Below, in pieces: positions 2,935 through 64,000 of a stretch of DNA of 64,000 nt (position 1 is the stretch's first letter; each line of letters opens with the position of its first letter). Both the position numbers and the translations under genes were made by a program. This DNA comes from Candidatus Micrarchaeota archaeon (GTDB lineage: Archaea > Micrarchaeota > Micrarchaeia > Norongarragalinales > SBBD01). The stretch lies in NCBI GenBank assembly GCA_018819225.1, contig JAHJQN010000005.1:35286-99285 (forward strand), in the 5' to 3' direction. Under the pieces are notes generated by a model, which was not told where the DNA came from, did not search any database, and saw only the letters and a program-made list of their open reading frames with translations.

Positions 2935-4239
2935 TCAAAGCAAATCTTTCGCCACGATGCTCAGCACCTCGACTTCCCTGCGAAATTGGTGGGCGTGACG
3001 TAATGCAATGGCTTGCGCCACACTCGGCGCGAGTTCCTCGCCTTCCCGGAATCCGCGCTTGCGGGCGTACGCCAGAATCTCGTCCGATATGGTTTTTCCT
3101 GAAGACAGCATTTCGCGGAAGGGCTGCGCAAACATCGCTGAACCGTGATCTTTTTGGAAAGAGTATGCGAGCTTATGGAATGCCGTACAATACGCGCGCA
3201 CGCGTGCATCCTCTAATCCGTTCAGAGCCACCGCGGGAAGCAGCGTATTGGTGATATAGGAATGAGGAGGCACCAAGAGCACGTGGCCATCGAACTTGAA
3301 CGGTTTCCGGATGCCGTCGTCGCTGGGACGCACCACAATCTCTTTCGCGTAAATGCGCTTGAGCACGGCGTTCAAGGCCGAAGAGGCGCCTAGCAAGACG
3401 CGCGGATGATTCGCGTCCATGCCGCGTTGTTCAATGGTTCCGAGTTTGTTGATGCGAACGGGACCCCAGAAAAAATTAAAGGGATTCGCGTTGCGGACGG
3501 ATAAGGGCACTTTGCCCATCACCTCCCTAACGTTCGAAATGAATCGTTTTTTTCGGGTAGCCGTTAAATGATTCAAATCCGTCAACGTGGACGCGTAACG
3601 AGGCAAGCGGCCGAATTCCGTCAATTCGTGGTAGACTCCCGCCAAATGCGAATGCTTCAAATCGCGGTATAAGAGCATGCGCGCATCCTTTCCAACATGT
3701 CGTCCTTCATAAAAGGGCGAGGATTGCAGGAAACAACTGACTGCAGGATCCGCGGCAATCAAGAAATTGTATTGCGAGATGACGGTGCGACGCGTCTCAG
3801 GTCCCTTGTAAATGCGCAGTAGCTTATCCTTATACAACATGGCGCCTTTCGGGAGATCGATGTGAAAATGAAAACCGCATACGCGTGACGCATACTGGCG
3901 AAACGCGGGTCCTAATACCGCGTCTTGCACGCGGTACCACGGCTTGTTGACCATGAACGGCTCGGAACGACCGGGGTACGTGCCCAAAGGAAGCAGGTAG
4001 CCATCGCCTTTCAACATTTTCTCCACGCGGTTTACGTGGTAAAATAAATTGCGAATGGAACCCAGGGAACGCGCGTGGGGCATGGAATTGAATTCGAGCA
4101 TGGAGTCCCCGACTTCCATAACAAACGGTTTTCGGGACTTGAAGCGTTTATGAATCCGACGCGCCCCGTTCATGAGGTTTCCGTCATCATCAATCAGGAA
4201 TACTTCGAGTTCGAAACCTACGGTGTGTCGTTTCATCAA
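2935..4239 (-). CDS. Carboxylate-amine ligase, glutamate-cysteine ligase family 2 (YbdK/GCS2-like)
   Basis: N-terminal GFELEVFLID motif typical of GCS2 ligases; 434 aa. Confidence 0.65.
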   Translation of the reverse strand: MMKRHTVGFELEVFLIDDDGNLMNGARRIHKRFKSRKPFVMEVGDSMLEFNSMPHARSLGSIRNLFYHVNRVEKMLKGDGYLLPLGTYPGRSEPFMVNKPWYRVQDAVLGPAFRQYASRVCGFHFHIDLPKGAMLYKDKLLRIYKGPETRRTVISQYNFLIAADPAVSCFLQSSPFYEGRHVGKDARMLLYRDLKHSHLAGVYHELTEFGRLPRYASTLTDLNHLTATRKKRFISNVREVMGKVPLSVRNANPFNFFWGPVRINKLGTIEQRGMDANHPRVLLGASSALNAVLKRIYAKEIVVRPSDDGIRKPFKFDGHVLLVPPHSYITNTLLPAVALNGLEDARVRAYCTAFHKLAYSFQKDHGSAMFAQPFREMLSSGKTISDEILAYARKRGFREGEELAPSVAQAIALRHAHQFRREVEVLSIVAKDLL

Positions 4240-52474: not shown

Positions 52475-52547
52475 GGGGCTGTGGGGTAACCTGGTATCCT
52501 GCTAGCTTCGGGAGCTAGTGATCTGAGTTCAAATCTCAGCAGCCCCA
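52475..52547 (+). tRNA. tRNA-Pro(CGG), intron-less
   Basis: GGGGCTG acceptor; anticodon stem CTAGC/GCTAG with loop TTCGGGA; T-arm CTGAG-TTCAAAT-CTCAG; CCA not encoded. Confidence 0.85.
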
Positions 52548-61224: not shown

Positions 61225-61240
61225 AAACGTTTATATAGGC
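61225..61240 (+). promoter_or_regulatory. Putative rRNA operon promoter (BRE plus TATA)
   Basis: gaaacgTTTATATAgg, about 315 nt upstream of the mature 16S 5' end. Confidence 0.4.
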
Positions 61241-62203
61241 TTTTAAGCTAAATACTTAACCTGCGCGAATTTGCGATTTGCGTAGCTGGTTGCTGTAGTC
61301 CCGGCGAATCGAAGCTCGTGCTATGACCGATTCCTTGAGCGGTCCCTTGATCTATGATAGGGCGTATTACGCTCCATTCCACTACAGCGGCCGATGGGAA
61401 TGTGAGCAATCGTTTTGAATCACGATTCACGTTCGACGGACGCGGACCTCAACGCCAAAATAAATCGTTTAGTTCTTTGCGACTCGTAATTCGCAATCAG
61501 TTAAATTCAGTACGGATTGCACACGCGCTCTTCCGAGAGGGAGAGTGGCGTGTAACACCAGTTGATCCTGCTGGAGGATATTGCTATCAGAATTCGACTA
61601 AGCCATGCAAGTCAGTGTTACCACCTGGTAACACGGCGAACGGCTCAGTAACGCGTACTTAACTTACCCTAGGCAGGCGAATAACTTCGGGAAACTGAAG
61701 GGAATACGCCGTAGGAAACAATTTCTGGAACGAAGTGTTTCTTAAAGTGCTCCGAATTGTAGGAGTTACGGCCTAGGATGGGAGTGCGTCTGATTAGGCT
61801 GTTGGTGGGGTAAAGGCCCACCAAACCGATAATCAGTAGGAGCTATGGGAGTAGAAGCTCCGAGATGGGCACTGAGACAAGGGCCCAAGCCCTACGGGGT
61901 GCAGCAGGCGCGAAATTTCCGCAATGCGCGCAAGCGTGACGGGGGAATTCTGAGTGCTTCTCTTACGAGAAGCTTTTGCTTAGCTTGAATCGCTAGGCGA
62001 ATAAGGAGTGGGTAAATCCTGTGCCAGCCGCCGCGGTAATACAGGTAGTCCAAGTGATATCCACGAATACTGAGTCTAAAGCGCTCGTAGCGGGTTCGGC
62101 AAGTTCTCTGTGAAATCTTCAAGCTCAACTTGAAGGCGTGCAGGGAATACTACCAGACTTGGGAGTGGGGGAGGCCAAGGGTACTTTAGGGGGAGGAGTA
62201 AAA

Positions 62204-62260
62204 CGACCTTTTCTTTCAAAAAGAAAAGCTCGACCAAAAGAAATCGACATGTCGTACTCA
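62204..62260 (+). repeat. 57-nt palindromic insertion inside 16S (between GGAGTAAAA and TCCTGTAATCC); a copy of the element next to tRNA-Leu
   Basis: cgaccttttctttcaaaaagaaaagctcgaccaaaagaaatcga... versus 11113-11160 (rc) acgaaccttttctttcgaaaagaaaagcttcaccaaaagaaaatga... Confidence 0.5.
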
Positions 62261-62477
62261 AAATCCTGTAATCCTTAAAGGACCTTCAGTAGCGAAGGCG
62301 CTTGGCCAAAACACGTCCGACCGTGAGGAGCGAAGGCCAGGGGAGCAAATCGGATTAGATACCCGAGTAGTCCTGGCAGTAAATGATGCAGACTAGGCAT
62401 TGCAATGGTTTCGAACTGTTGCAGGGCCGTAGGGAAGCTGATAAGTCTGCCACTTGGGGAGTACGGTCGCAAGACTT

Positions 62478-62518
<41 letters not shown>

Positions 62519-63061
62519 TGCTGCGGTTCAATTGGACTCAACGCCGGGAAACTCACCAGGAGAGACAGCAGAATGAAGCTCAGGCTAAAGACCTTAGCTG
62601 ACAAGCTGAGAGGTGTTGCATGGCCAGCGTCAGTTCGTGCCGTGAGGTGTCAAGTTAAGTCTTGCAACGAACGAGATCTTCATCCACAGTTGCCAGTTTC
62701 GCGGTAACGCGGAGCGCACTCTGTGGAAACTGCCTGCGTTAAGTAGGAGGAAGGAGAAGGCGACGCTAGGTCTGTATGGCCCGAATCTCCTGGGCCACAC
62801 GTGGCATACAATGGCGGAGACAATGGGTTCCGACGCCGAAAGGCGAAGGTAATCTCCGAAACTCCGTCTAAGTCCGGATTGGGGGCTGAAACTCGTCCCC
62901 ATGAAGCTGGAATCCCTAGTAATCGCGTGTCATCATCGCGCGGTGAATATGTCCCCGCTCCTTGCACACACCGCCCGTCAAGTCAACCAAGCGAGGCTTT
63001 AGTGAGGCTTGGTCTTCGGATCAAGTCGAGCTAGAACTTTGTAAGGTGGATTAAGTCGTAA

Positions 63062-63830
63062 GAACGTTGCGACCTCGGATCTGTGAGGATTTGAGAAAAA
63101 ATCTGCTATATGCTGGAAACCCCGAGCATCTCAGGCTACCATCGGAAACGACGCTTCGGAATGAATATCATTCTCGAAGAAATTCAGTTGGTGAAAATGT
63201 TTTGAGTGCGGGCAATCAGCAGGGAAGTCGGCGCGAAAGCGCTTGACCCCTCAGAGACTACACGCAGACTTCTATAGTGCAAGAGAACATGAAGGCATAT
63301 CTCCTTGGCGCGCTACACGATGGCTCCAATCACGGTAACACGTACCGAATCGTCCAAAAAGAAGAAGAATACGTCCGCTGGATTGCGGATGAACTTCATC
63401 AAATGGGCATTTCGGCATGGGTTTATCGGGAAGGAGCTGAACGACATTTATTCGTCGTCGAGTTCTCGAAAAGTCGGTTATCGGAAATCAAGATCAATAG
63501 TCTTGAAGAGAAAACTGAATACATTCGAGGATACTTCGATGCCGAAGGTAGCGTACCATTGAAATCGGGAGCCAGAATGTACATTTATTTCTGCCAAAAA
63601 GACCGAAAGGATCTGGAAGAAGTAAAAACATTCTTGGAAGAACTTGGAATCGTTTGTGGAAAAACCCACAATCCAACGTTCAAAGAACCTGATTATTGGA
63701 GATTCTTCATTGGATGTAAATCCTACAAAGCATTTGCATCTAAAATTGGTTCTCGCCATCCTCGAAAGAGGAAAGTACTCGAGAAGATGATATAGTCCAT
63801 GCCGCGCAGCGATGCGTGGAAGAACATGAA
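63062..63830 (+). mobile_element. 16S rRNA intron near the 3' end (after AAGTCGTAA), carrying a homing endonuclease ORF
   Basis: The 16S consensus AAGTCGTAACAAGGTAGCCGTAGGGGAACC is restored when 63062-63830 is removed. Confidence 0.8.
63277..63795 (+). CDS. LAGLIDADG-family homing endonuclease (double-motif, monomeric type)
   Basis: YLLGALHDGS (motif 1) and IRGYFDAEGS (motif 2) roughly 95 aa apart; 172 aa. Confidence 0.85.
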   Translation: MQENMKAYLLGALHDGSNHGNTYRIVQKEEEYVRWIADELHQMGISAWVYREGAERHLFVVEFSKSRLSEIKINSLEEKTEYIRGYFDAEGSVPLKSGARMYIYFCQKDRKDLEEVKTFLEELGIVCGKTHNPTFKEPDYWRFFIGCKSYKAFASKIGSRHPRKRKVLEKMI

Positions 63831-63969
63831 CAAGGTAGCCGTAGGGGAACCTGCGGCTAGATCACCTCAAAAATCAATAAGAACTAAAAGGTGATTTCAA
63901 AGCAAGGAAGTCAATTAAGTCAATTTCCTTTTTTGGAAACAATGAGGTCCGCGTCTTTATTTTTCTTAA

Positions 63970-64000
63970 GGGCTCGTGGCGCAGTGGTAGCGCGCCTGCT
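63970..64000 (+). tRNA. 5' part of a spacer tRNA (probably tRNA-Ala), truncated by the window end
   Basis: GGGCTCG-TG-GCGC-AGTGGTA-GCGC-G-CCTGC...; in the position of the archaeal 16S-23S spacer tRNA-Ala; anticodon not reached. Confidence 0.5.

Follow-up and report, generated by a model that had tools for sequence, protein, structure and literature searches.

A probable mobile group I intron, of the IB4 type already published, with a LAGLIDADG homing endonuclease gene, after position 1498 of a Micrarchaeota 16S rRNA gene

Introduction

Nawrocki, Jones and Eddy (2018) described 39 archaeal group I introns, three of which lie at small-subunit (SSU) rRNA position 1498: IB4.8 from Nanohaloarchaeota, and IB4.19 and IB4.26, both from Micrarchaeota (PMC6125680). 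SSU/1498 was remarked upon as the sole site at which group I introns had not been seen before (PMC6125680). Here we analyze a 64,000-nt stretch of DNA (the window) from Candidatus Micrarchaeota archaeon (assembly GCA_018819225.1, contig JAHJQN010000005.1, positions 35,286 to 99,285, forward strand), near the end of which a 16S rRNA gene is interrupted, 44 bases before its own end, by 769 nt. The interruption is very probably a group I intron, mobile and belonging to the published IB4 type, located after U1498 of the 16S rRNA of this member of the Micrarchaeota (DPANN) and carrying the gene for a homing endonuclease (HEG) within its P8 loop. An earlier description, made by a model from the letters and their open reading frames (ORFs) and referred to here as the sequence-only reading, had proposed an rRNA intron encoding a LAGLIDADG protein at this place.

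The two published Micrarchaeota introns are the closest described systems. IB4.19 (MNVH01000001.1) is 735 nt long and IB4.26 (MNVJ01000003.1) 743 nt; according to the supplement of that study, both have the P7 strands GAGACUA, with the second base bulged, and UAGUCC, a structure that starts 5 nt into the exon, and a HEG of the LAGLIDADG_3 family (PMC6125680). The Rfam model RF00028 returned no archaeal introns at E < 0.01 once overlaps had been resolved, and subtype models found them (PMC6125680). In bacteria of the Candidate Phyla Radiation (CPR), Tsurumaki et al. (2024) reported 16S genes with insertion sequences at position 1498; LAGLIDADG_3 proteins are described in that study only from 16S insertions, at the sites 16IS5 and 16IS10, and 16IS10 is listed among the group I intron sites (PMC11270868). 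16IS10, which is the last numbered 16S site, presumably corresponds to position 1498. Our literature search returned nothing newer on Micrarchaeota in this matter.

Results

Insertion Site and Register

The archaeal 16S rRNA gene extends from 61555 to about 63870 on the + strand and is covered by the full Rfam model SSU_rRNA_archaea. Exactly 769 nt split the universally conserved AAGUCGUAACAAGG, inside AAGUCGU|AACAAGG. The gene was divided as follows:

61555-63059, + strand: 16S rRNA exon 1, to E. coli U1498 (Rfam SSU_rRNA_archaea from 61555, 1365 bits)
63060-63828, + strand: predicted group I intron, 769 nt, SSU/1498 (Rfam RF00028 model positions 1-253, 48.3 bits, E 5e-11)
63829-63870, + strand: 16S rRNA exon 2, AACAAGGUAGCCGUAGGGGAACCUGCGGCUAGAUCACCUCA (matched by the 3′ end of the SSU model)

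When the downstream stretch was searched alone, SSU model positions 1395-1478 matched solely 3′ of the insertion, at window 63788-63870 (3500-3582 of locus L003, which is the same contig as the window and whose coordinates become window coordinates on adding 60288). The claim of the sequence-only reading that the 3′ end of the 16S gene is interrupted by about 769 nt is thereby confirmed. Rfam detected no second SSU match in the window, making this the sole 16S there, and the host gene appears from the sequence to be single copy.

The 5′ junction (63050-63075) reads GGATTAAGTCGT, to 63059, followed by AA and GAACGTTGCGACC, so that the intron starts with AA GAACG, while the 3′ junction (63818-63869) reads GGAAGAACATG-AA-CAAGGTAGCCGTAGGGGAACCTGCGGCTAGATCACCTCA, with ACATG ending at 63828 and followed by AA CAAGGTAGCCGTAGGGGAACCTGCGGCTAGATCACCTC. 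The junction register is therefore ambiguous over the repeated AA and could be 63062-63830, 63061-63829 or 63060-63828. Because group I exons end in U and group I introns in G, and because five homologous introns start with a base other than A, which leaves them no such ambiguity and places the site after U1498, we assign the predicted intron by group I register to 63060-63828, after E. coli U1498. The interval given earlier, 63062-63830, had the right length and shifts by 2 nt in this register. Exon 1 ends in AAGTCGT in the window and in all 59 unique relatives described below, a motif partly required by our search pattern.

Relatives and Ribozyme Structure

At gathering thresholds Rfam listed just the 16S and one tRNA gene, and the intron surfaced solely in an E-value search of 62950-64000, in which Intron_gpI (RF00028) spans its whole model at 63050-63819. 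E-values of the group I matches ranged from 5e-11 to 2e-9, and these are not chance matches. In three further archaeal loci (L001, L007, and L008) the group I match likewise adjoins the archaeal SSU 3′ end (Rfam, 48.0-49.7 bits).

We collected 88 loci, 2 by a scan of genome contigs and 80 by a scan of metagenomes. In 76 of the loci both ends of a complete intron could be set, at AAGTCGT and AACAAGGTA, the guide (G/A)TTGCGAC standing close to the intron start. L022, with exactly 735 nt, and L007, L013, and L018-L021, with exactly 743 nt, belong to this set. An intron identical to that of the window, with the same junctions, was assembled independently from run SRR6514730 (L004). After excision of the ORF, 59 distinct ribozyme halves were aligned with MAFFT and the helices of the window were projected onto the alignment. 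The following elements were placed, with pairing counts taken over the aligned sequences:

63055-63073, + strand: P1, exon GUCGU (63055-63059) with intron GCGAC (63069-63073), the pair U63059•G63069 marking the 5′ splice site (by eye)
63066-63073, + strand: internal guide GUUGCGAC, complementary to the ligated junction GUCGU|AAC (by eye)
63074-63095, + strand: P2 hairpin of 9 bp (63074-63082/63087-63095) with GUGA loop; three basal pairs 100% paired, with 2-5 pair types each
63102-63106, + strand: P3 5′ strand UCUGC, partner 63264-63268; 5 pairs, 57-59/59 paired, at most 5 pair types each
63111-63250, + strand: P4-P5-P6 domain, helices placed in the alignment of relatives
63111-63116/63216-63221, + strand: P4, with GC<->CG and UA<->GC swaps; 54-59/59 paired
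63121-63124/63209-63212, + strand: P5
63130-63135/63201-63206, + strand: P5a; 20-23/23 paired, many pair types
63136-63200, + strand: extension of about 65 nt at the P5 tip, absent from the 15 other sequences displayed in the alignment
63222-63224/63248-63250, + strand: P6
63227-63234/63239-63247, + strand: P6a with GAAA loop
63254-63260, + strand: P7 5′ strand GAGACUA, A63255 bulged; invariant in 59/59
63264-63268, + strand: P3 3′ strand GCAGA, from the alignment of relatives
63270-63280, + strand: P8 5′ strand, pairing with 63775-63785 (4 bp, a 2x2 mismatch and 5 bp), with the ORF in the P8 loop
63775-63785, + strand: P8 3′ strand, within the last ORF codons
63793-63798, + strand: P7 3′ strand UAGUCC; invariant in 59/59
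63802-63819, + strand: P9 hairpin of 7 bp (63802-63808/63813-63819) with GCGA loop, from the Rfam alignment; apical and basal pairs covary
63828, + strand: omega-G, the guanosine that ends the intron at the 3′ splice site; present in 59/59 unique introns, independently of the search pattern

All five P1 pairs are retained in 59/59 sequences and are invariant. P10 would be formed by guide GUU (63066-63068) with exon-2 AAC (63829-63831), pairs that are retained in 55/59, 59/59, and 59/59 sequences. Within P7, G63256-C63797 would be the guanosine-binding pair. The P5a region of the window folds as a long irregular hairpin, and P8 is uninterrupted in relatives such as L010.

Inside P2, P8, and P9 and in part of P5/P6a the MAFFT alignment is faulty, which accounts for the low pairing there, and the control test was restricted to 34 well-aligned pairs from the base of P2, P3, P4, P5, P5a, P6, and P9. 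Over these pairs, 93.4% of cells were paired, as against 37-46% with slid partners and 71.3% (maximum 73.4%) in 500 column shuffles, the slid control correcting for relatedness and the shuffle control ignoring it. Double-sided changes were found in 25 of the 34 pairs, compared with 10-14 in the slid controls. Most of P9 and the P2 base were seen to covary in the same way as P3, P4, and P5a.

As a separate observation, the intron starts with the hexamer AAGAAC (63060-63065, AAGAACGUU...) and nearly ends with the same hexamer (63820-63825, ...AAGAACAUG). Besides the exon-2 AAC at 63829-63831, GUU 63066-63068 could alternatively pair with AAC 63823-63825, and it is possible that this represents an alternative or a P9.0-like contact.

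Homing Endonuclease

The loop of P8 accommodates the endonuclease gene:

63289-63795, + strand: homing endonuclease gene, most likely 168 aa from ATG (Pfam LAGLIDADG_3), with its stop UAG (63793-63795) in the P7 3′ strand

The frame of 172 aa given by the sequence-only reading is the maximal one, running from a GTG at 63277 to 63795. Because public gene calls, including an NCBI protein record, and the N-termini of the family agree on ATG 63289, the product most likely has 168 aa; the family alignment begins 2-3 residues before KAYLLG. The last codons of the ORF cross the P8 3′ strand and J8/7, and the stop codon is part of P7.

The match to Pfam LAGLIDADG_3 (PF14528) scored 56.4 bits (E 3.5e-15; curated cut-off 22.5) and extended over residues 78-158 of the 172-aa frame. 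The motifs LLGALHDGS and GYFDAEGS are both present, Pfam detecting the second domain only. A homologue search of the kind that had been suggested earlier returned 514 proteins at E <= 1e-3. The best homologue, encoded on a 709-kb contig, is 100% identical over 168 aa and is recorded at NCBI as 'LAGLIDADG family homing endonuclease [Candidatus Micrarchaeota archaeon]'. Searching the PDB sequences with the single protein (phmmer) gave no match, whereas a profile of 32 homologues matched I-DmoI (E 7e-4), with GYFDAEG aligned to GLYVAEG of I-DmoI. An AlphaFold2 model built on the family alignment had a predicted local distance difference test score (pLDDT) of 93.1 and a predicted template modeling score (pTM) of 0.88. 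It consists of two alpha-beta-beta-alpha-beta-beta units, in which helices 2-11 (KAYLLGALHD) and 72-86 (...YIRGYFDAE) are each followed by four strands. In Foldseek the top 34 matches were I-DmoI, over the full length (E 1.5e-9, TM 0.73), and the next were I-Tsp061I, intein endonucleases, and WhiA. D11 and E86, the acidic ends of the LAGLIDADG helices, are invariant in the 32 homologues. That the ORF is intact and holds two motifs, as had been read from the letters, is thus upheld by the Pfam match and by a confident model in which both motifs stand at the ends of domain-opening helices. On this model, the product would be a monomeric two-domain LAGLIDADG endonuclease resembling I-DmoI and is predicted to cleave DNA.

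None of the other ORFs of the intron on either strand (93, 85, and 59 aa) had a Pfam match, and scans for bacterial-type promoters and terminators gave nothing above background.

Hosts of the Related Introns

We classified the hosts of the 76 loci by signatures in the flanking 16S sequence. Archaeal signatures (GCACACACCGCCCGTC upstream) were found in 28 and bacterial ones (GTACAC... and the 1390-region base) in 21, while 27 more were taken as bacterial by the 3′ exon alone, which is unlike the archaeal consensus and like that of the 21. This gives 48 bacterial-signature loci by an assignment that is heuristic and that Rfam confirms for three archaeal loci and for L005, whose HEG is labelled Patescibacteria by NCBI. 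In a neighbor-joining (NJ) tree of 56 distinct HEGs, the 34 copies with bacterial hosts all fall into one clade and those with archaeal hosts into two, the window copy lying in the Micrarchaeota-like one. No other copy found exceeds 78% identity to the window HEG. The tree is rough, but it speaks against an assembly chimera and in favor of rare transfer between domains.

It is conceivable, if somewhat doubtful, that one lineage of intron and endonuclease moved between DPANN archaea and CPR bacteria sharing groundwater, homing into the identical 1492-1506 sequence in both. A single bacterial clade beside two archaeal clades, as seen in our sample, would be consistent with few transfers and possibly also with an archaeal origin. 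If the cross-domain reading is true, the window copy would be a deep branch on the archaeal side, structurally elaborated by its P5 extension.

Two observations concern individual bacterial copies. The Patescibacteria 16S of L005 has, upstream, a second group I match that lacks an ORF (L005:1415-1648, 58.3 bits, above the Rfam threshold), and its 1498 intron (1733-2444) was unreported by Rfam at E <= 0.001. In the bacterial-host loci L050 and L086 the 1498 intron is present and the endonuclease frame, counted back from the stop, contains 14 stops in each; these could be due to HEG decay in a retained intron or to a difference in frame or length.

Other Features of the Gene and Its Surroundings

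The same 16S gene carries a second insertion, of 60 nt, at 62200-62259, with a register that is ambiguous across AAAA; it interrupts the '690-loop' helix at the apical loop. Four relatives (L001, L007, L013, and L017) read this loop uninterrupted, as GGAGU-AAAA-UCCUGU, and one lineage, represented by the overlapping contigs L009 and L010, has a 65-nt counterpart at the same spot (about 186-250), whose first hairpin is changed yet still pairs. The 60-nt element folds into GAGUA/UACUC, a 3-nt AAA bulge, and CGAC/GUCG, followed by two hairpins. It shows only half of a bulge-helix-bulge (BHB) motif, and symmetric cuts would remove 59 nt rather than 60. It may be excised as a small intron of non-canonical type or be retained as an expansion segment.

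Downstream of the 16S gene, a tRNA-Ala(TGC) gene starts at 63970 and is cut by the window end (63970-64000). Beyond the window end, on the same contig (L003:3682-6507), the archaeal 23S gene starts at L003:4027, where the Rfam model (positions 16-2975) is matched in about 2 kb, a gapped local alignment. A second LAGLIDADG_3 ORF begins at L003:6019, and because of it the 23S gene probably carries at least one more intron. On the other side, TTTATATA at 61231-61238 could plausibly serve the rRNA operon as an archaeal TATA box, its distance upstream from the 16S 5′ end being about 320 nt, and an inverted repeat seen by eye occupies 61522-61554, directly before the 16S start. A tRNA gene at 52475-52547 (Rfam, 60.6 bits), about 9 kb upstream of the rRNA operon, is unrelated to the intron.

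Discussion

Proposed Splicing and Homing

The pairings and the protein model lead us to propose the following course of events at SSU/1498, where the intron would be self-splicing and mobile and its endonuclease active. The guide GUUGCGAC would first form P1 with the last five bases of exon 1, placing the U•G pair at the cleavage point, and would next form P10 with the three bases that open exon 2. The P3-P9 core, including the P3/P7 pseudoknot, would bind a free guanosine, which would attack after U63059, and the freed 3′-OH of exon 1 would in turn attack after the terminal G63828. AAGUCGU would in this way be rejoined to AACAAGG, restoring a normal 16S 3′ end. Alleles of the 16S gene that lack the intron would presumably be cleaved by the endonuclease at the 1492-1506 sequence, which is universally conserved, and repair of the cut allele would copy the intron in.

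Several points weigh against this interpretation and should be kept in view. The search patterns demanded AGTCGT, a TTGCGAC-like guide, and AACAAGGTA, so that the conservation of those motifs is partly by construction, and 10 of 86 loci were without a complete intron, a cut contig being the most probable cause. P1, P10, and P7 are invariant and hence contribute no covariation evidence, an invariance that is expected of elements tied to the conserved exon and to the catalytic core. The score of 48.3 bits is 1.7 below the curated gathering score of 50 of RF00028, and the relatives mentioned above also fall short of it; the score is lowered by the 500-nt ORF in P8. P8 of the window has a 2x2 mismatch where relatives pair perfectly. 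Finally, assignment to subgroup IB4 means identity with published features, not a match to an IB4 covariance model.

Alternative Explanations

The slightly low Rfam score and the weakened P8 would also be compatible with an insertion that is never removed with ligation, in which case this 16S would be a pseudogene, or excision without rejoining would leave the rRNA in fragments, a 3′ piece of 42 nt being free. Apart from the insertion, however, the 16S is intact, matching the full model at 1365 bits, and it stands in a normal 16S-tRNAAla-23S operon context as the sole SSU match of the 64-kb window. The exon-aligning guide (P1 and P10), P7, and the terminal G are all intact, and so is the HEG, whereas the apparently decaying copies in L050 and L086 show stops. 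We therefore regard a 16S left unspliced or unjoined as very unlikely.

A different mechanism of removal was implied by the sequence-only reading, which pointed to protein-spliced introns such as those of Thermoproteales and proposed a BHB structure prediction. The insertion would then be an archaeal BHB intron, removed through cleavage by the tRNA-splicing endonuclease and sealing of the exons by the RtcB ligase. In the BHB motif, a 4-bp helix lies between two 3-nt bulges that contain the splice sites, and further helices flank it on both sides. The host is indeed an archaeon, such introns often carry LAGLIDADG genes (PMC4496867, PMC6125680), and UCGU 63056-63059 can form a 4-bp helix with AUGA 63826-63829. 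When we ran the prediction over all three registers, this helix had 0 flanking bp on both sides and needed asymmetric cuts, and with symmetric cuts the deletion would amount to 770 nt, at the cost of a conserved A; the BHB motif is absent at the junctions. A relaxed scan of the junctions (bulges of 3-4 nt, helix of 3-5 bp) found nothing better, with at most 1 bp of flanking helix. The complete group I core is conserved and covarying, with its P1/P10 guide and terminal G, and the same element is common in 16S genes with bacterial signatures. Bacteria are not expected to possess the archaeal splicing endonuclease, and splicing in those genes would therefore have to be RNA-catalysed. Under both the strict and the relaxed model, we rejected a BHB origin for the 1498 intron, which we consider scarcely credible and close to refuted.

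Practically no weight attaches to an assembly chimera, in which a bacterial (CPR) intron was misjoined into an archaeal rRNA contig via universal flanks: both domains have identical AAGTCGT/AACAAGG flanks and intron-bearing CPR bacteria co-occur with DPANN archaea in groundwater metagenomes, but the window HEG falls among other copies from archaeal hosts, with 62-78% identity, rather than in the all-bacterial clade, with 52-58%, its P4 is the archaeal-host variant UGCUGG/UCAGCA and not UCGGUG/UACCGA, the same junctions were assembled independently in L004 from another run, and archaeal sequence continues on both sides.

Consequences for Surveys and Annotation

The group I intron that we favor divides the site of primer 1492R (E. 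coli 1492-1510) 7 nt from its 5′ end, so that 769 nt separate AAGTCGT from the remainder. Because the 3′ end of the primer cannot anneal beside its 5′ part, PCR would be expected to fail rather than give a longer product. The failure with 1492R foreseen in the sequence-only reading is thus retained, and the product about 770 bp longer is not, the intron splitting the primer site itself; only primers placed further 3′ would yield an additional 769 bp. Carriers of the SSU/1498 intron would in consequence drop out of near-full-length 16S amplicon surveys that use 1492R. Annotation is affected as well. Rfam forced the last 45 or so SSU model positions into the start of the insertion, ending at 63107, and rRNA predictors misplace the 16S 3′ end in intron carriers.

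The window contributes one copy, with a peripheral P5 extension, to the published archaeal group I introns, and opens no new question. Taken with the related loci, it indicates that the same pair of intron and endonuclease is common at one universal 16S site in DPANN archaea and CPR bacteria.

Comparison With Known Systems

The 16S BHB introns of Thermoproteales (Jay and Inskeep, 2015; PMC4496867) resemble the window intron in being archaeal 16S introns that can carry a LAGLIDADG gene and have the same consequence for surveys. They differ in being removed by a protein endonuclease where the window has a predicted ribozyme and no BHB motif, and in occupying other sites.

For the enzyme, the nearest described protein is I-DmoI, from the 23S rRNA intron of Desulfurococcus mobilis (PDB 1B24, 2VS7), which is matched by structure over the full length and with which the second motif aligns. 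By eye, the first motif AYLLGALHDG also resembles AYLLGLIIGDG of I-DmoI. Identity is about 20%, the window enzyme is about 25 residues shorter, and the target site is another one, I-DmoI residing in a BHB intron of 23S rRNA and the window enzyme in a group I intron of 16S rRNA.

Insertions at position 1498 of CPR bacteria share the site with the window intron, and our bacterial-signature loci have the GUUGCGAC guide, the P7 strands, and the terminal G in common with it, along with a HEG that is 52-58% identical. They belong to the other domain of life, their P4 differs in a compensated way, and their HEGs form a separate NJ clade.

The closest likeness is to IB4.19 and IB4.26. Compared by the features recorded in the published supplement rather than by aligned sequences, the window intron is identical to them in five respects, namely the site SSU/1498, the P7 strands, the 5-nt exonic P1, the LAGLIDADG_3 HEG, and a Micrarchaeota host, and it is similar in length. 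It differs in reaching 769 nt through its P5 extension of about 65 nt and in its mismatched P8. The insertion site had been called unusual in the sequence-only reading; with three archaeal group I introns published at SSU/1498 (PMC6125680) and insertions reported there in CPR bacteria (PMC11270868), it is not unusual, and the intron of the window is a further member of a published kind.

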